A DNA stretch of 64,000 nt from positions 12,351 to 76,350 of the forward strand of contig JASMTI010000198.1 in the NCBI GenBank assembly GCA_041694375.1, in the 5' to 3' direction. Shown piece by piece: positions 4,616-13,924 of this stretch; positions within the stretch are counted from its first letter, which is position 1; every line of letters starts with the position of its first letter. The notes below the pieces were generated by a model. The model was not told the DNA's origin and searched no databases. It saw only the letters and a program-made list of their open reading frames with translations. The translations under genes and the position numbers were made by a program. Source of the DNA: Bacteroidales bacterium. GTDB lineage: Bacteria; Bacteroidota; Bacteroidia; Bacteroidales; Prolixibacteraceae.

Positions 4616-4676
4616 ACACAAGAATCAAGACACAAGAATCAAGACTTAGGAATCAAGACTTAGGAATCAAGATGCA
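4614..4676 (+). repeat. Tandem 7-mer array upstream of the four-helix-bundle gene
   Basis: AGACACA AGAATCA AGACACA AGAATCA AGACTTA GGAATCA AGACTTA GGAATCA AGATGCA. It starts inside the mutA TAG and ends on the next ATG (4672). Confidence 0.9.
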
Positions 4677-5031
4677 TAATTACTTAGAACTGAAAATATG
4701 GCAACAATCGAGAGAATTGGTAAAGCAGATTTATCTGATTACTGAATCATTTCCCAAAAGCCAGATGTATGGTCTTGCTAATCAAATGCAACGTGCAGCT
4801 GTTTCAATTCCATCTAATATTGCAGAAGGAGCGGGGCGTAATACAGAGAAAGAGTTTATCCGGTTCTTAGATATTGCAAATGGCTCTTCTTTTGAATTAG
4901 AAACTCAACTGCTTCTTTCTGTTGACCTGGAGTTTTCAGAACAAATTCAAATTGAACCAATTATTTCTAATTTGAAAGGAATTCAGAAGATGCTCTTTAA
5001 ATTCAGATGTTTATTAGCATCCAAATCTTGA
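4672..5031 (+). CDS. Four helix bundle protein (23S rRNA-IVP / bAvd-like family)
   Basis: Family signature LKIWQQSRELVKQIY...FPKSQMYGLANQMQRAAVSIPSNIAEG...FIRFLDIANGSSFELETQL. Confidence 0.92.
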   Translation: MHNYLELKIWQQSRELVKQIYLITESFPKSQMYGLANQMQRAAVSIPSNIAEGAGRNTEKEFIRFLDIANGSSFELETQLLLSVDLEFSEQIQIEPIISNLKGIQKMLFKFRCLLASKS

Positions 5032-7264: not shown

Positions 7265-7278
7265 GTTTGATAATATTG

Positions 7279-7313
7279 AAGCCCCACTGTCGGATGATGG
7301 TGGGGCTTTTTTG
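7279..7313 (+). terminator. Intrinsic terminator of the mut operon
   Basis: AAGCCCCAC...GTGGGGCTT followed by a T-tract. Confidence 0.85.
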
Positions 7314-7318
7314 TTTTT

Positions 7319-7337
7319 ATTTAAATCCATTCTAAAT
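7319..7337. promoter_or_regulatory. Candidate Fur-type box upstream of the TonB receptor
   Basis: ATTTAAATCCATTCTAAAT matches 15/19 of the 9-1-9 palindrome ATTTAGAATTATTCTAAAT, recalled as a Flavobacteriales Fur box. Confidence 0.4.
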
Positions 7338-7375
7338 CATAACATCTTAGGATTGCAGCATCCAACCTTGCATTC

Positions 7376-7383
7376 TATTTTTG
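7376..7383 (+). promoter_or_regulatory. -7 box for the iron-uptake operon
   Basis: TATTTTTG matches TAnnTTTG, with TTG about 20 bp upstream and ATG at 7413. Confidence 0.55.
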
Positions 7384-7412
7384 CCCTATCAAAAAAGTAG
7401 GACACAAACAGG

Positions 7413-9764
7413 ATGCATAAAATTTTTCTTAGATACTTTGTTTTTATTCTTTTGCTTACCATCATACAGGTTTCGTTTGGTAAGGAAAATACGACTTCGT
7501 TAAGCGGTAAAATTACAGATACCGGTGGTAACCCCGTTAGCTTTGCCTCGGTGTTAATCAACAAAACCCAGAAAGGGGTTTCAACCAACGTAGAAGGTGA
7601 GTTTGATGTGCCCAATATTGCTTCGGGCAAATACACTATTGAAGTACGGTGCATTGGTTACGAAAATTATTCGGGCCAAATTGTTATTGAAAACACAGGC
7701 ACGAATACCGTTGAAGTCGTGCTCAACCCCGCAGATATTGAAGTTGGCGAAGTATTGGTTACCGGGAAGGGCAAAACAGCACAAACCCGGCAAAAGGCTT
7801 TTACCATCTCGGCAATCGATGCCGAACCCCTACAAAACCTGAACCAGGATATCAACCATGTTTTGGGCAAGGTTACAGGCGTACGAATCCGCGAGGAAGG
7901 TGGATTGGGCTCAGGCTTTAACTTTAGCCTGAATGGTTTTTCGGGCCGGCAAATCAAATTCTTTCTCGATGGCGTGCCCATGGACTACTACGGTTCTTCA
8001 ATGTCACTGAACAACATCCCAATTAACATGGCCGAACAAATTGAGGTTTACAAAGGTGTTGTCCCAGTCAATTTGGGCTCCGATGCCCTTGGCGGGGCTG
8101 TTAATATTGTTACCCGTAACGATGTAAAAAGCTTTGTTGATGCCTCATATAGCATAGGCTCATTTAATACACACCGTTTGTCGTTGCTTAGTAAATACGT
8201 GAATCCTGAAAATGGATTTACCATTGGAATGAACGCATTTGGCAATTATTCTGATAATGACTATTGGGTTGATGTTGAAATTTATGACAGCGAAACCAAA
8301 GCCTACAAAGGTATTGAAACAGTACACCGGTTTAACGATGCTTATAAATCGGGTATGGTACAGTTTGAAACCGGATGGCAAAACCGCAGCTTTGCCGACC
8401 AGCTTTTGGCAGGGATAATTGTTTCAGGAAATTACAAAGAAATACAGACCGGGGTGAACATGAACCAGGTGGCTGGTCAGGTTTACCGGACCAACGACCA
8501 GTTTGTAGCTTCGGTTAAATATAAAAAGGAGGCACTCCTTGCCCCAGGACTTGACGTACGGTTCTATTCATCGTACCTCGACGGGCATTCGTTGGTGGCC
8601 GACAGCAGCTCGCGTCAATATAACTGGCATGGCGGGTATTATGTTGAAAGCATTGGTACTTCGGGCGAGTTAACTCGCGATAAATCACTCTTCTCGTTTG
8701 ATGATAAAAGTGCTACAACAAGTTCAAATGTTAGCTACGAACTTACCCCGCAACATGCTTTTGTGATAAACCACAACTACTCATGGTTTCGCCGCGAAGG
8801 AAACGACCCGCTGAGCCCGTATGTTATCCCGTACGACGAGCCTAATGTGATGAACAAGCATGTATTTGGGACCGGATATCAGAACAAAATGTTTGATGGG
8901 CGCATCTCAACCAATATTTTTTATAAACTCTTCACCATGGATGTTGATGTGGTTTATGCCGAATGGGGCAACTACGAACAGAATAACCAATCGTACACAC
9001 GTAGCAGCTTTGGACTGGCTTCAACGTGGTTTATTATGCCATCAGTCCAGTTGAAGCTTTCATACGAAAATACATACCGGCTCCCCGAGGTTTACGAGCT
9101 GATGGGTGATGGGTACTTGCTTAAAAACAACCCGTACCTGAAGCCTGAACGTAGCCGTAATTTTAACGCGGGTGTCTTATGGGATTATCTAAGTTCAAAC
9201 CATCATTTGCTGGTTGAGGCCAATTACCTTTACCGCTATGCCGAAGATTTAATCAGGCTTGATGTTGCTGCCATTACCAGCCAGTATCAAAACTTGCGCA
9301 GTGCCCGCGTAAACAGTTTCGAGGGAAGTGTGCGTTATCGTTACAAAGATTTGTTGAACATTGAGGTCAATACCACCTATCAGGATATGGTCAACCTTGA
9401 TAAAAAGACAGGCTATTATAGAGTACGTATCCCGAACGTACCCTATCTTTTTTGCAATGTTTCAGCCGGGCTTACTTTTAAAAACGTTGGCATTGAAAAG
9501 TCAAAATTCAGCATGAACTGGGCGGTGGCTTTTGTTGAGGCTTTCTACCTTAAATGGCCCAACCTGGGCTTACCATCTTCAAAATACACCATTCCCCGGC
9601 AGTTGTCGCATAATGCATCGCTCGCTTATTCGATAAATGGGCGTTACAATATCTCTGTTGAATGCCGAAATGTTTTCGACCGGGCTTTGTTTGATAACTA
9701 TGCCTTACAAAAACCCGGAAGGTCATTTAATGTGAAGTTGAGGTACTTTTTTGCTTCAAAATAA
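7413..9764 (+). CDS. TonB-dependent outer-membrane receptor (XusA-like)
   Basis: Signal peptide, carboxypeptidase-regulatory-like N-domain, plug (IRE..GGLGS, IEVYKGVVPV..GSDALGGAVNI), and C-terminal PGRSFNVKLRYFF. Confidence 0.92.
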   Translation: MHKIFLRYFVFILLLTIIQVSFGKENTTSLSGKITDTGGNPVSFASVLINKTQKGVSTNVEGEFDVPNIASGKYTIEVRCIGYENYSGQIVIENTGTNTVEVVLNPADIEVGEVLVTGKGKTAQTRQKAFTISAIDAEPLQNLNQDINHVLGKVTGVRIREEGGLGSGFNFSLNGFSGRQIKFFLDGVPMDYYGSSMSLNNIPINMAEQIEVYKGVVPVNLGSDALGGAVNIVTRNDVKSFVDASYSIGSFNTHRLSLLSKYVNPENGFTIGMNAFGNYSDNDYWVDVEIYDSETKAYKGIETVHRFNDAYKSGMVQFETGWQNRSFADQLLAGIIVSGNYKEIQTGVNMNQVAGQVYRTNDQFVASVKYKKEALLAPGLDVRFYSSYLDGHSLVADSSSRQYNWHGGYYVESIGTSGELTRDKSLFSFDDKSATTSSNVSYELTPQHAFVINHNYSWFRREGNDPLSPYVIPYDEPNVMNKHVFGTGYQNKMFDGRISTNIFYKLFTMDVDVVYAEWGNYEQNNQSYTRSSFGLASTWFIMPSVQLKLSYENTYRLPEVYELMGDGYLLKNNPYLKPERSRNFNAGVLWDYLSSNHHLLVEANYLYRYAEDLIRLDVAAITSQYQNLRSARVNSFEGSVRYRYKDLLNIEVNTTYQDMVNLDKKTGYYRVRIPNVPYLFCNVSAGLTFKNVGIEKSKFSMNWAVAFVEAFYLKWPNLGLPSSKYTIPRQLSHNASLAYSINGRYNISVECRNVFDRALFDNYALQKPGRSFNVKLRYFFASK

Positions 9765-9793
9765 ATTGAGTATAAACATAAAACCAGATAGAA

Positions 9794-11023
9794 ATGAAAA
9801 AATCAATTTTGTTATTTAAGTTAATGATTGTGTTACTGGCCTTTTCGGCGTTATTTGTGGCTTGTGAGGAAGAAGAAGTTGCACCAACAAGCAATGCCGA
9901 TGGCTATGTGCTGGCTTTACGTTCGTTAGGCACAAACAACGAAACAGCCGATTATATTTTAAGTGCCAATGACCTTACCTCGGGTGAAATATCGGCTGAA
10001 GGGCGCGGTGTTGAGCAACAAGGATGGCGGTATTATACAACTGCCGGCGACAGGTTTTTCAGTGTTGGCTATGGCGATAACAACCTAATAGGTTACCAAC
10101 TGAACGAAGAAAATATTTTTGTTGAAGCCGGTAAAATGGTATTTGAACGTATGGACTGTATGAGCCCTGCTTTTGACGATAAGTTTGTAGCCATTGGTGC
10201 CCCCTGGGGCGGTGGCTCATACGATTGTACCATCCAGTTGATTGATACTGAGTCGGTGTCGGTAGAGCATGAGGTAGTTCATCCCCTTTACCGGGTTTCA
10301 GAAAGTGATACGCTGAATAAATGGCCCACATCGGCAATGCTCAAAGACAATAAGGTTTATGTTTCATTTTACCCATTGCACGGGTCAAGCTGGCAAACCC
10401 CACAGGTTGATACGGCTTATATCAGTATTTTTAGCTATCCCGAATTGGAATATGAGAAAACCATCAAGGATACGCGTACCGGCCCAATTGGTTACTACGG
10501 TAACTCACCGGCCATGATGTTGGATGAAGGCGGAAACCTTTACACCGTTTCCCCAAGTTCGTATGCTGCCGGTTATACCTCGGTAAGCAAATCCTCGGGT
10601 ATCTTACGTGTAAATGCCGGCGAAAGTGAATTCGATACAAACTATTTTTTCGATGTTGAAGCTGTAAGTGGTTACAAAGTACTGACTGCAGCCTATGCCG
10701 GAAATGGTATGGCCGTTGCCCGCGTAGCAGCAAATGAAACTGAAGAAGAAATTGGTGGCTGGGGCGCATTTAAAGTAACCGTGCCACGCTTAAAGGTAGC
10801 TGTGCTCGACCTCGTGAACAAAACGGTTACCGATGTGGTTGATATTCCCCGGCATGGAGGGCAGTATGCAACACCATTTTTTATTGAAGACGGAACAGTT
10901 ACAATGTCGATTAACGATGGTGAAAATGTAAACCTATACCAAATCGACCCGCAAACAGCAACTGCAACGAAAGGTGCATCGGTTGATGGTATTGAAGTGC
11001 AGGCAATATATAACGCAAATTAA
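9794..11023 (+). CDS. DUF4374 surface lipoprotein (XusB-like)
   Basis: Lipobox LFVA-C followed by acidic EEEE. ADYILSANDLTSGEIS and GILRVNAGESEFDTNYFF are typical DUF4374 segments. Confidence 0.8.
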   Translation: MKKSILLFKLMIVLLAFSALFVACEEEEVAPTSNADGYVLALRSLGTNNETADYILSANDLTSGEISAEGRGVEQQGWRYYTTAGDRFFSVGYGDNNLIGYQLNEENIFVEAGKMVFERMDCMSPAFDDKFVAIGAPWGGGSYDCTIQLIDTESVSVEHEVVHPLYRVSESDTLNKWPTSAMLKDNKVYVSFYPLHGSSWQTPQVDTAYISIFSYPELEYEKTIKDTRTGPIGYYGNSPAMMLDEGGNLYTVSPSSYAAGYTSVSKSSGILRVNAGESEFDTNYFFDVEAVSGYKVLTAAYAGNGMAVARVAANETEEEIGGWGAFKVTVPRLKVAVLDLVNKTVTDVVDIPRHGGQYATPFFIEDGTVTMSINDGENVNLYQIDPQTATATKGASVDGIEVQAIYNAN

Positions 11024-12177
11024 TGACATACAAACAAATCATAAAAAAGGTACACCTATGGCTCGGGCTTGCGTCCGGGCTATTGGTGTTTCTTATTTCT
11101 ATCAGCGGGGCCATGTATGCCTTCAAAGATGAAATATTCAACAAGGTACATGCCGAACACAGGTATGTTGGTAAGGCTGGAGACGAAACCCTGCCGGTTG
11201 ATTCCCTTTGGCATATTGCTTCCGGTGCCCTGGGTGAAGGGCGCCCTGTCACTTATTTGAATACATATTCAGACCCTCTGCGGGCATGGGAATTCAAGGC
11301 TTACCACTATAACAACGATAAAGTATTGTATTTTAACTGGTGCGAGTACGACTTGGTTGTGTATGTTAATCCTTATAATGGAGAGGTTTTGCATGTATTG
11401 GACCACAAGTACGAATTTTTTCAAATGGTTAAAATGTTCCATTGGAGCTTTTGGCTCAATACTAAATATGGTCAGCCCATTGTAGGGTGGACTGTCGTTC
11501 TGTTTGTTGTTGCCCTTCTTTCAGGTTTAGTATTATGGTGGCCCACGGGCAAACGTTCAAAGCGCCGCAGTTTTGTAATAAAGCGCACCCGCAAATGGAA
11601 GGTACTGAATTACGATTTGCACAATGTACTTGGTTTTTATTCAATCCCCTTTGCTTTGGTGCTCTCGTTTACCGGCATGGTGTGGGCTTTTAAGTGGTTT
11701 ATGGCACTGGTTTACCTGGTGTTTAATTTAAGCAGCGAACCCCCTGTTACCGAACAAGCAAGTTCGGTATCATACAATAAACCTTTTGTTGAGTCGGTTT
11801 ACGAAACCGTTTACCAAAAATCAGTTTCTGAACACCCGGATGCATATTCTATTATGATACGGGCAGCAGAACCTTCGGATAGCGGTGTTGTGAACACATT
11901 TGTGAAAGAGAAAGAGGCGGTATATTATAAAGCCCATCAGGAAACATTTGATAAATACACGGGAGAGAAGCTTACCACAAGGGGGTTCGACGATTTGAAC
12001 CGTGGTGAAAAAGTGCTGAGCATGAATTATGATATTCATGTGGGCGCTATTTTGGGACTGCCCGGTAAAATATTGGTTTTTGTAATTGCATTAATCGCTG
12101 CATCAATGCCAGTAACAGGTTTCATTATTTGGTGGAACCGACGGAAAAAACGTAAAAAAATAACCATCGATATTTAA
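11023..12177 (+). CDS. PepSY-associated TM helix protein (XusC/FoxB-like ferric-siderophore reductase)
   Basis: His motifs KKVHLWLG, MFHWSF, YDLHNVLG and YDIHVG, four TM helices, and translational coupling (TAATG) to the upstream gene. Confidence 0.9.
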   Translation: MTYKQIIKKVHLWLGLASGLLVFLISISGAMYAFKDEIFNKVHAEHRYVGKAGDETLPVDSLWHIASGALGEGRPVTYLNTYSDPLRAWEFKAYHYNNDKVLYFNWCEYDLVVYVNPYNGEVLHVLDHKYEFFQMVKMFHWSFWLNTKYGQPIVGWTVVLFVVALLSGLVLWWPTGKRSKRRSFVIKRTRKWKVLNYDLHNVLGFYSIPFALVLSFTGMVWAFKWFMALVYLVFNLSSEPPVTEQASSVSYNKPFVESVYETVYQKSVSEHPDAYSIMIRAAEPSDSGVVNTFVKEKEAVYYKAHQETFDKYTGEKLTTRGFDDLNRGEKVLSMNYDIHVGAILGLPGKILVFVIALIAASMPVTGFIIWWNRRKKRKKITIDI

Positions 12178-12182
12178 TAGAT

Positions 12183-13733
12183 ATGTTTTCACTGTATAAC
12201 CCTGTAAAAAAAGAAAAGTCCGCATTAACTATTTTATATGGTACACATTCGGGCAATTCAAAATATATTGCAAAAACCGCATCAAAACTATTTAAAAAGA
12301 ATGGTGTTGAGAACACCTGTATTGATGTGGGGCGCTACAATTTTGATGATTTTCATACCGAGGAAAATGTTTTGTTGGTCATGAGCACCCATGGCGACGG
12401 GGTGCCACCTTCGTCTGCCAAAAAGTTTTACAAAAAGTTGATGAAACTTGACATTTCCTTGAGCAATTTGAATTTCTCGGTTTGTGCACTGGGCGATAAA
12501 TCGTACGATAAATTCTGTCAAACCGGTTTGGACATACACGAAAAGCTACAATTAGCGGGGGCAAAACAAATTACCGATGTGGTGAAATGCGATGTCGATT
12601 ATAAGCAGCCTGTACAAACGTGGCTCAAATTTCTGGTGAATCATTTTAAAGGTGGCGAAGCCAAGGTGCTTGATATTGGGCAAGCCCCAAAATCGGAGTT
12701 CAATGCACGTATTGTATCACGAAAAAGGCTCAATGCCCCCTCATCGGGTAAAGAAGTGATTGAACTGAAGTTAAAAATAAAAGACCCCGGTTTTTCATGC
12801 CTTCCCGGTGATACATTGGCTATTCTTCCCAAGAACAATGCAATAATGGTTTATAAAATATGGTCGCTGTTAAATACCAAACATTATACATCGCCAGAGG
12901 CAATCCCTTCGGTCATTAAAAGTTTAATCAACGATTACGAACTATCGTTACTGCCGATAAAATTTTTCAAGCAATACAATGCATTGGCCGGAAGTGAAAA
13001 ACTTGAGAAACTCATATTAAGTAAAGAAGTAAAAGAAAAGTACGGAGGTGAGAATGCCCTGGTGAATTTGATGCATGATTTTCCGGTGAAATTATCACCC
13101 GATGAATTAATTGCGATGTTAAAACCCATCAGGGCACGTTACTATTCAGTTTCATCAGTGTGGGATGTCGAAACCAATACCATTGACCTGTTGTTACGGA
13201 CCCTCAATCGGGGGGTTGCTACCAATTACCTTGGGCACCGCCTCGAAACAGGGAGCCGTATAAGTGTCAGACATGTCCAAAATGAGCAATTCAGACTGCC
13301 TGCCAAAAAAGATGTGCCGGTTATAATGGTCGCCAATGGCGTAGGATTGGCCCCTTTCAGGGCATTTTTGCAACAAATGCAAAACGAAGGGCGTAAGCAT
13401 AAAACATGGCTTCTTTATGGCGACCGCAGCCGCAAAACCGATTTCATTTACGAGAATGAATTTATGCAGTTCCAAACTGAAGGTGTTTTATCAAAATTGT
13501 CGTTGGCATTTTCGCGCGATGAAGAATCAAAATATGTTCAGCATACCGTAGCCGAAAACCAAAAGAAAATTGCAAAATGGCTTAAAAAGGGTGCACACGT
13601 GTATGTTTGCGGTTCAACCGGAATGGGAAAAGAAGTTAAACACGCAATTAAGCAGTCAATGGCGTTGAAAGGGAAAAAGTCCGGCATCGACCAGTTAAAA
13701 AAAGAGGGACGTTATTTTGTAGAACTATTTTAG
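12183..13733 (+). CDS. CysJ-like diflavin (FMN/FAD) NAD(P)H oxidoreductase
   Basis: Flavodoxin motifs LYGTHSGNS, STHGDG and ALGDKSYDKFC. FAD motif RYYSVSS. NAD(P) motifs GVGLAPFRAF, AFSRD..KYVQH and VYVCG. Confidence 0.88.
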   Translation: MFSLYNPVKKEKSALTILYGTHSGNSKYIAKTASKLFKKNGVENTCIDVGRYNFDDFHTEENVLLVMSTHGDGVPPSSAKKFYKKLMKLDISLSNLNFSVCALGDKSYDKFCQTGLDIHEKLQLAGAKQITDVVKCDVDYKQPVQTWLKFLVNHFKGGEAKVLDIGQAPKSEFNARIVSRKRLNAPSSGKEVIELKLKIKDPGFSCLPGDTLAILPKNNAIMVYKIWSLLNTKHYTSPEAIPSVIKSLINDYELSLLPIKFFKQYNALAGSEKLEKLILSKEVKEKYGGENALVNLMHDFPVKLSPDELIAMLKPIRARYYSVSSVWDVETNTIDLLLRTLNRGVATNYLGHRLETGSRISVRHVQNEQFRLPAKKDVPVIMVANGVGLAPFRAFLQQMQNEGRKHKTWLLYGDRSRKTDFIYENEFMQFQTEGVLSKLSLAFSRDEESKYVQHTVAENQKKIAKWLKKGAHVYVCGSTGMGKEVKHAIKQSMALKGKKSGIDQLKKEGRYFVELF

Positions 13734-13924
13734 TTAAAGTATTTCTTCAGGTTGTACTTTTGTGCTACCTGAAGACGTTTATCATCATCAATTGATTTCA
13801 TGTACATTTTCCATCCGGGGCAAAATTTAATATGCCATTTCCAGAACCGGCCGGCAAATGATTTTGGGTTTTTATCGTATTTTGCCCTCATTTTACATTC
13901 ATCGCAAGCTTGTGTTTTTTCCAT
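13730..13924 (-). CDS. Small conserved-looking Cys/Trp-rich hypothetical protein
   Basis: 64 aa, CDEC...RAKYDKNPKS..GRFWKWHIKFCPGWK. It starts 11 bp after the upstream PLP-enzyme gene on the same strand. Confidence 0.7.
   Translation of the reverse strand: MEKTQACDECKMRAKYDKNPKSFAGRFWKWHIKFCPGWKMYMKSIDDDKRLQVAQKYNLKKYFN

Follow-up and report, generated by a model that had tools for sequence, protein, structure and literature searches.

Where does a membrane-bound ferric-siderophore reductase of the PepSY_TM family obtain its electrons, and can a gene encoded directly behind it supply them? This question is raised by a four-gene operon in a stretch of 64,000 nucleotides from a Prolixibacteraceae bacterium (assembly GCA_041694375.1, contig JASMTI010000198.1, positions 12,351 to 76,350 of the forward strand), referred to here as the window, whose source organism turns up in subsurface and oil-field samples. 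The first three genes resemble the XusABC siderophore systems of Bacteroides and encode a TonB-dependent transporter (TBDT), a DUF4374 surface lipoprotein and a PepSY_TM inner-membrane protein, while the fourth encodes a soluble diflavin reductase with flavin mononucleotide (FMN), flavin adenine dinucleotide (FAD) and NAD(P)H domains. We regard it as probable that the locus is a Xus-type iron-starvation cassette carrying its own electron supply, in which the diflavin reductase donates to the PepSY_TM protein.

All four genes lie on the + strand with gaps of 29, -1 and 5 bp and would be transcribed together; the open reading frame (ORF) coordinates agree exactly with the original prediction, a note made from the letters of the window, and a Pfam profile search returned the gene families that it had named (TBDT, DUF4374, PepSY_TM and Flavodoxin_1/FAD_binding_1/NAD_binding_1). 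The first gene (7413..9764, + strand) encodes a XusA-like TBDT of 783 amino acids (aa) with the domains CarbopepD_reg_2, Plug and TonB_dep_Rec_b-barrel, which matches chain A of PDB entry 9GBC, identified in PMC13142918 as XusA of B. thetaiotaomicron, at 426.6 bits (E 1.9e-126, residues 3-781 against 4-794). The second (9794..11023, + strand) encodes a XusB-like lipoprotein of 409 aa that is recognized by the Pfam model DUF4374 (PF14298) at 68.6 bits and aligns over its full length with the B. fragilis protein BfXusB (9HQE, apo form, and 9HQK, with ferrichrome; identities from the same source) at 198.8 bits, compared with about 25 bits for the B. thetaiotaomicron protein BtXusB. By these alignments the lipoprotein is of the short, hookless XusB type, a type tied to hydroxamate siderophores (PMC13142918). 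Of the ferrichrome-contacting positions of BfXusB, the lipoprotein retains W323, has other aromatics at Y77, W235 and L93 (W, Y and Y, respectively) and carries D in place of Y52. The signal peptide ends in FVAC, with the lipobox cysteine followed by EEEE, which resembles the acidic surface-export signal described for XusB homologs (PMC13142918).

The third gene (11023..12177, + strand), whose start codon overlaps the stop codon of the xusB-like gene by 1 nt, encodes a XusC/FoxB-type PepSY_TM protein of 384 aa that matches PF03929 at 217.4 bits over model positions 2-295 of 295. Hydropathy analysis places four transmembrane (TM) regions at approximately residues 6-34, 149-177, 202-234 and 337-372. 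Direct similarity to FoxB of Pseudomonas aeruginosa (7ABW) is weak (45 bits in three segments), and the segments align at TM1, TM2-3 and TM4. Across 48 aligned Bacteroidia PepSY_TM homologs, four histidines and no others are invariant (48/48), namely H11, H140, H200 and H339, which align with H9, H136, H198 and H339 of FoxB and correspond to the four histidine motifs noted at the outset; H198 is named as a haem ligand in the FoxB paper. On this conservation, haem binding and a function as a di-haem ferric-siderophore reductase are assigned to the protein as putative. With full-length matches to XusA and BfXusB and a PepSY_TM gene in third place, the proposed likeness to XusABC (BT2065-BT2063, and the BfXusB variant of B. 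fragilis) holds, including the order TBDT, DUF4374 lipoprotein, PepSY_TM. The window differs from XusABC in the addition of a diflavin reductase gene 5 bp after xusC; B. thetaiotaomicron, scanned as a control genome, encodes no FAD_binding_1 protein at all.

The fourth gene (12183..13733, + strand) encodes a reductase of 516 aa whose three Pfam domains all score above cutoff (Flavodoxin_1 93.9, FAD_binding_1 61.8 and NAD_binding_1 57.9 bits) and in which hydropathy analysis detected no TM segment. It shares its domain order and cofactor motifs with the sulfite reductase flavoprotein CysJ and with NADPH-cytochrome P450 reductase (CPR), in both of which the FMN domain passes single electrons to a haem protein; the match to E. 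coli CysJ (6EFV) reaches 234 bits and that to CPR 174 bits. In the alignment to 6EFV the FMN loops, the RxYS FAD motif, GxGxxP, SR and CG are all in place, and the complete set of retained motifs comprises STxGxGxPP (as STHGxGxPP), CALGD, RxYS, GxGxxP, SR, CG and the C-terminal acidic-aromatic pair. CysJ and CPR differ from the window protein in the octamerisation segment, in having CysI or a P450 as partner, in belonging to a separate clade and in having another conserved neighbour.

One could nevertheless suppose that the fourth gene is the CysJ of an assimilatory sulfite reductase or that it works for the B12-dependent methylmalonyl-CoA mutase encoded next to it, perhaps by reducing cobalamin, since cysJ is its best named NCBIfam hit, public homologs are annotated as "sulfite reductase" and mutA and mutB lie directly upstream. 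We judge this extremely improbable. The score against TIGR01931 (cysJ) is 381.7 bits, below the cutoff of 668.15, with the alignment beginning at model position 56 of 597, and that against NF008197 is 286.8 bits (cutoff 838); the N-terminal stretch of about 55 residues that forms the oligomerisation (octamerisation) segment of CysJ is missing. CysI (NIR_SIR, PF01077) had no match in the window's own genome, a 97.3%-complete assembly that was scanned genome-wide, in a search whose control was positive in 11/14 reference genomes, so that the reported lack of a CysI gene nearby extends to the genome as a whole and leaves no such partner elsewhere. Because the protein scores below the cysJ cutoff, lacks this N-terminus, has no CysI in its genome and falls outside the CysI-linked clade described below, the comparison identifies it as a diflavin reductase and not as CysJ. 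A role as P450 reductase was set aside likewise, as the same genome holds no P450. The reductase is the sole FAD_binding_1 gene of this genome and adjoins its sole PepSY_TM gene; the genome's only DUF4374 gene is also in the operon.

The original prediction had further pointed to deviations from CysJ, namely VANGVG and a terminal RYFVELF. Both are present, and both are conservative, GxGxxP being kept as GVGLAP and the acidic residue and terminal aromatic as E-L-F. Only the window, its 90%-identical relative and Roseimarinus have them; in the remaining PepSY_TM-linked reductases, AGTGIAP and D/E-L/V-Y stand in these places, as is usual. On this account VANGVG/ELF was rejected as a signature of reductases linked to PepSY_TM; the deviations mark the window's sublineage and are not diagnostic of function.

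Evidence for a functional partnership comes from the neighbourhoods of homologs. We retrieved 80 genomic loci encoding reductase homologs and clustered their neighbours (loci, genomes and contigs are designated below by L, G and C numbers). About 60 homologs have 590-620 aa and adjoin CysI, seven adjoin a radical S-adenosylmethionine (radical-SAM) gene, and seven shorter ones, of about 520-560 aa by longest ORF, lie directly behind a PepSY_TM gene; these seven come from Roseimarinus sediminis, Thermophagus and several Prolixibacteraceae metagenome-assembled genomes (MAGs). The original prediction hung on the linkage recurring in relatives, and PepSY_TM was found directly 5' of a reductase homolog at 13 loci, with reductase identities of 34-45% (linked homologs: Roseimarinus sediminis, 44%, and L005, L007, L010, L013, L014, L082, L123, L125, L168, L169 and L170; the 602-aa ORF of L082 probably over-extends upstream). 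Moreover, all eight further metagenomic homologs whose neighbourhood was looked up lie behind PepSY_TM (8/8), with a TBDT in front in 6/8 and DUF4374 between in 3/8 (P0006, P0007 and P0036).

In a tree of 13 PepSY_TM-linked, 3 unlinked, 26 CysI-linked and 7 radical-SAM-linked reductases, the PepSY_TM-linked and unlinked sequences separate from the CysI-linked and radical-SAM-linked ones with an approximate likelihood-ratio (SH-aLRT) support of 100; over this tree and a first version of it, support for the PepSY_TM-linked clade was 98-100. In the genomes of Roseimarinus, MAG OY781040 and Thermophagus, a canonical cysJ-cysI pair coexists with this paralog. The reductases of the XusB-containing operons (window, Roseimarinus, L123 and L169) form a subclade with those of L121 and L071 (support 97). 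The radical-SAM-adjacent short diflavin reductases (L015, L023, L044, L052, L057, L062 and L080) constitute a third clade (SH-aLRT 99-100) from Marinilabiliaceae, Prolixibacteraceae and one Spirochaeta MAG, whose neighbour is always a radical-SAM gene of about 430 aa; they may represent a dedicated NADPH-driven reducing system for the radical-SAM enzyme.

The PepSY_TM proteins have a different history from that of the reductases. In a tree of 55 proteins the reductase-linked members fall in three or four separate clades, and forcing them together, in a test run after the tree was seen and with the linked group defined by neighbourhood, costs 190.6 log-likelihood units (approximately unbiased test, p-AU 1.8e-69). 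The two trees also conflict, the L125 reductase grouping with those of L170 and L010 and its PepSY_TM protein with that of L014, and at L014 and L168 the PepSY_TM-reductase linkage occurs without an adjacent TBDT. The involvement of several PepSY_TM lineages, together with these conflicts, argues that the linkage was re-made or kept by selection, with one reductase clade joined to, or kept with, several PepSY_TM lineages, which is more than inherited synteny would give. These comparisons lend good support to a functional link of the reductase with PepSY_TM.

A different arrangement is seen in a close relative (L121:1-230 and L122; Logan runs SRR15526462/61), which was compared with window positions 7316-7425 and 12183-12230 and carries a deletion allele. 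Its promoter runs into approximately codon 8 of the reductase, about 4.8 kb of TBDT, XusB and PepSY_TM sequence being deleted, and its reductase is 90% identical in amino acids. An assembly artefact is unlikely, as two runs that were assembled separately show an identical junction, at which no shared 31-mer is visible. This allele is an observation in favour of a soluble enzyme, induced by iron starvation and acting alone in the cytoplasm as a ferric-chelate or flavin reductase or as a flavodoxin-like carrier, which would share the promoter through timing: the relative keeps an intact reductase behind the same operator and promoter without TBDT, XusB or PepSY_TM at the locus. The E. coli sulfite reductase flavoprotein is reported to reduce ferrisiderophores in vitro. 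The unlinked clade members L009 and L071 fit such an enzyme as well, and iron limitation in Bacteroidota induces few genes as strongly as flavodoxin (PMC10434189). We nonetheless consider a solitary cytoplasmic enzyme unlikely, since it leaves unexplained why one clade stands directly behind the PepSY_TM genes of three or four lineages, even at loci without a TBDT (L014 and L168), and why PepSY_TM is naturally fused to the same module in other proteins. The operon furthermore lacks an inner-membrane siderophore importer that would deliver a ferric chelate to the cytoplasm, and the intact L121 gene may be a recent leftover of the deletion.

The extent of the unit to which the four genes belong can be read from related strains. 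In runs X2 and X4, both oil-field metagenomes, contigs of an approximately 89%-identical and more abundant relative join position 7311 to 13743 through 16 unmatched letters, so that the mutB terminator almost abuts the 3' end of the small convergent ORF, whereas the operon itself is covered in the same runs by identical contigs at a depth of about 5-6, below that of the empty-site relative. The presence/absence cassette is thus delimited to 7312..13742 and contains the promoter, the operator, the four genes and nothing else; the unit gained and lost is the promoter plus four genes, 6.4 kb, ending just after the reductase stop codon. Its left border follows the intrinsic terminator of mutB (7278..7309, + strand; a 14-bp stem with 7 GC pairs, then a T-run), and a terminator scan found none inside the cassette except hits in coding sequence. 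The cassette borders showed neither repeats nor an integrase or other mobility genes. These borders also bear on the supposed service to the mutase: a terminator stands between mutB and the cassette, related strains have mutB at the empty site without the cassette, and the flanks of the Roseimarinus operon are entirely different, for which reasons a link to mutAB or B12 genes was rejected.

Upstream of the first gene lies a candidate operator that resembles a Fur box, AAATCATAACATCTTAGGATTG (7334..7355, + strand), followed at 7376..7383 (+ strand) by TATTTTTG, read from the sequence as a Bacteroidota-type -7 promoter box; it fits TAnnTTTG, the -7 consensus of Bacteroides promoters, and is placed 30 nt before the ATG of the TBDT gene and 20 nt after the operator. 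A sigma-70 scan, whose model is unsuited to Bacteroidota, returned 12 sites, compared with a mean of 16.6 in shuffled sequence, and none upstream of the TBDT gene. The operator was found through a motif common to three orthologous upstream regions, which was scanned genome-wide in place of the classical E. coli Fur consensus. On contig C275, the FeoA-FeoB gene is preceded at a distance of 64 nt by a perfect 9-4-9 palindrome with which the operator agrees at 20/22 positions; three sites genome-wide have no more than two mismatches to that palindrome, and the operator is one of them. The feoAB palindrome itself (G000:C275:24491-24512, L126), 22 bp long and a candidate Fur operator for this organism, separates feoAB from the divergently oriented gene for an Fe/Mn superoxide dismutase; the third site differs at two positions and precedes, by 30 nt, a 112-aa ORF on C65 that has no Pfam match. 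The operator is identical in L121, and related, partly conserved motifs precede the operons of Roseimarinus and G036. The genome encodes three Fur-family proteins, on contigs C290, C285 and C77. Because the operator is common to the operon and feoAB, we infer on good grounds that the operon would be under iron control, as low-iron induction is expected for XusABC.

Whether the fourth gene is a working member of this cassette or a decaying or idle passenger, such as a former CysJ or the fragment of a fusion, can be weighed from its rate of evolution. Between the window and Roseimarinus the reductases share 44.7% identity and the other three operon proteins 66-74%; this long branch, and the G036 operon described below, which keeps the FMN domain only, are what a passenger would predict. 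Yet 16/16 sequences of the reductase clade have an open reading frame, none of the cofactor-binding motifs has been lost, and the ratio of nonsynonymous to synonymous substitution (dN/dS) against the 90%-identical L121 relative is 0.127 over a dS of 0.37. The operon is moreover near-identical across many independent metagenomes. A passenger accordingly seems to us improbable, though somewhat less so than a CysJ, and a functional reductase remains the reading that we favour.

The extension is rare. Among 251 Bacteroidia genomes scanned for PepSY_TM and FAD_binding_1, the former occurs in 52 and the latter in 6, and the two are adjacent in the window's own genome only. In a class-wide neighbourhood sample of 43 PepSY_TM genes in 40 loci, no flavodoxin or diflavin gene stood beside PepSY_TM (0/43), and a jackhmmer search of the 40 loci with the window FMN domain returned 0 hits; a general rule of a flavodoxin behind xusC in Bacteroidia was dropped, as it is not seen in these 40 sampled loci. 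Other genes downstream of PepSY_TM in this sample encode DUF6607, an M28 peptidase or an esterase, and the relative G022 has TBDT-PepSY_TM without any flavin gene. The diflavin extension is a rare, lineage-restricted option and not a general Xus feature.

Two further layouts bring PepSY_TM together with an FMN module. The first is fusion: L108 encodes a protein of 727 aa composed of PepSY_TM, Flavodoxin_1, FAD_binding_6 and NAD_binding_1, flanked by DUF2271 and ApbE, the reductase half of which is 26-27% identical to the window reductase. Among the 251 genomes, seven each contain one ORF of 729-753 aa that matches PepSY_TM more weakly, and L108 belongs to this group. At L160 (G278:C13, 2208-11494, - strand), ORFs of 504, 159 and 738 aa lie behind a three-gene Xus-type operon on the same strand, and the last of them matched PepSY_TM and the ferredoxin-NADP reductase (FNR) half of the window reductase and is a putative fusion; the 504- and 159-aa ORFs are similar to the ankyrin-repeat and DUF2271 genes of L108 by size alone. 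The second layout is seen in G036, where TBDT-DUF4374-PepSY_TM precedes a CysJ-type flavodoxin of 168 aa that is 38% identical to the window FMN domain. This gene (L111, G036:C101, 1345-1851, - strand) has no gene for a FAD/NADPH domain nearby and encodes either a minimal donor or a truncated remnant. Because the FMN module is common to all three layouts (fused, split with a full diflavin protein, and split with a flavodoxin only), they point to this module as the working partner of PepSY_TM, the piece that would touch it.

The most likely mechanism is, in our view, an electron path from NAD(P)H through FAD and FMN to one haem, a second haem and finally Fe(III). The XusB-like hookless lipoprotein would capture a foreign siderophore, probably a hydroxamate, which the XusA-like TBDT would carry to the periplasm. 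In the cytoplasm, NAD(P)H, presumably NADPH, would give up a hydride to the FAD of the diflavin reductase, and the FMN domain of this enzyme would receive single electrons, dock on the cytoplasmic face of the PepSY_TM protein and reduce the inner haem. The PepSY_TM protein, with two b-haems predicted on the four invariant histidines, would then reduce Fe(III) and release Fe(II), whose uptake would proceed via FeoAB. The original proposal of a dedicated donor distinct from CysJ withstood all those of its own refuting conditions that could be examined by computation; linkage, phylogeny, cassette and operator support both the dedicated link and the distinction from CysJ, while the electron transfer is a step that we infer.

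Several observations weigh against this interpretation. Three of the 16 reductase clade members do not adjoin a PepSY_TM gene: L009 (Sunxiuqinia rutila) lacks the syntenic copy but has another one elsewhere in its genome, in L071 the reductase adjoins a chemoreceptor gene, and in L121/L122 the operator and promoter are joined to an intact reductase, the three upstream genes having been lost. The rarity of the extension means that most Xus/FoxB-type systems must get their electrons by another route, and the much faster evolution of the reductase compared with its operon partners could mean relaxed constraint. The deviations from CysJ that were initially cited, being lineage-specific and conservative, say nothing for the proposed function, and the passage of electrons from FMN to a membrane haem belongs to the conjectural part of the scheme. 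The "Fur box" owes its assignment only to its resemblance and to the feoAB position, and no RNA runs holding the locus were found. Finally, the idea is not new in kind, fusions and donation by NAD(P)H being already in the literature.

That literature places the window among known systems as follows. Josts et al. 2021 reported fusions of COG3182 (PepSY_TM) proteins with "sulfite reductases", and Meheust et al. 2021 proposed cytosolic NAD(P)H as the donor for 1077 PepSY-like genes carrying a NAD-binding domain (NAD_binding_1). By its domain content and flanking genes, L108 can be assigned to the "PepSY-like system" of Meheust et al. 2021, and it is likewise consistent with the fusions reported by Josts et al. 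2021. Fused PepSY_TM-flavodoxin-FNR proteins share their three redox modules with the window (NAD(P)H/FAD, FMN and PepSY_TM haems), and electrons are proposed to pass through them in the same direction, but they form one polypeptide, use FAD_binding_6 and belong to a DUF2271/ApbE flavinylation cluster, whereas the window has two ORFs split by a stop codon and 5 bp, a CysJ/CPR-type FAD_binding_1 connecting domain and a TBDT/XusB siderophore operon. Neither DUF2271 nor ApbE was detected among the ten Pfam-scanned window genes, i.e., the four operon genes and six neighbours. What is known elsewhere as one fused protein is divided between two genes in the window.

The stand-alone PepSY_TM periplasmic ferric-siderophore reductases FoxB (P. 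aeruginosa), FpvG, FhuB (Burkholderia) and HiuB (Caulobacter) share with the window protein the Pfam family, four TM helices, the four haem-ligand histidines and an adjacent TBDT. FoxB is a di-haem periplasmic ferrioxamine reductase that was assayed in vitro with dithiothreitol, and term searches of the FoxB paper turned up no physiological donor; HiuB works with the small membrane protein HiuC. In the searched papers on these four proteins, no cytoplasmic donor or adjacent reductase gene is named, whereas the window has one adjacent, and the published Xus model names no electron donor for XusC (PMC13142918). A literature search pairing PepSY with diflavin or CysJ returned no paper describing the arrangement; the concept itself is known from fused proteins. 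What is new here is a split, soluble, full CysJ-type partner in a Xus-type operon, with its own clade and evidence of repeated association.

Outside the cassette, the upstream neighbours of the operon are mutA, a gene for a four-helix 23S rRNA intervening-sequence protein (23S-IVP) and mutB. Such 23S-rRNA-IVP/Avd-like four-helix-bundle genes recur as small inserts between unrelated genes, with copies at window positions 4672-5031 (between mutA and mutB), L009:2762-3289 and L168:813-1196, the latter two adjoining polysaccharide-export genes in two Prolixibacteraceae. Downstream, on the opposite strand, a 64-aa ORF (13730-13924, - strand) precedes a gene for a pyridoxal phosphate (PLP)-dependent dehydratase with which it is co-directional. 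This ORF contains Cys-rich motifs (CDEC ... FCPGW), its stop codon overlaps that of the reductase, its DNA is 93% conserved in L121, and it is a backbone gene.

The in-cell electron source of FoxB, FpvG, XusC and HiuB is unsettled, and the locus bears directly on this donor question. The window and roughly a dozen relatives, including the cultured Roseimarinus sediminis DSM 28824, offer a cleanly separable two-protein system. A broader generalization, which we put forward tentatively as possible though short of probable, is that a distinct diflavin clade would be the physiological NADPH-driven donor of FoxB/XusC-type reductases, recruited repeatedly and carried here in an iron-regulated cassette, and that, by extension, the FMN module may be the universal docking partner of PepSY_TM. 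If true, this would suggest the low-iron-induced flavodoxin FldA as the candidate donor in gut Bacteroides, which have no diflavin gene. If the proposed donation is confirmed, the reductive iron-release pathway would be completed for one class of siderophore piracy systems.

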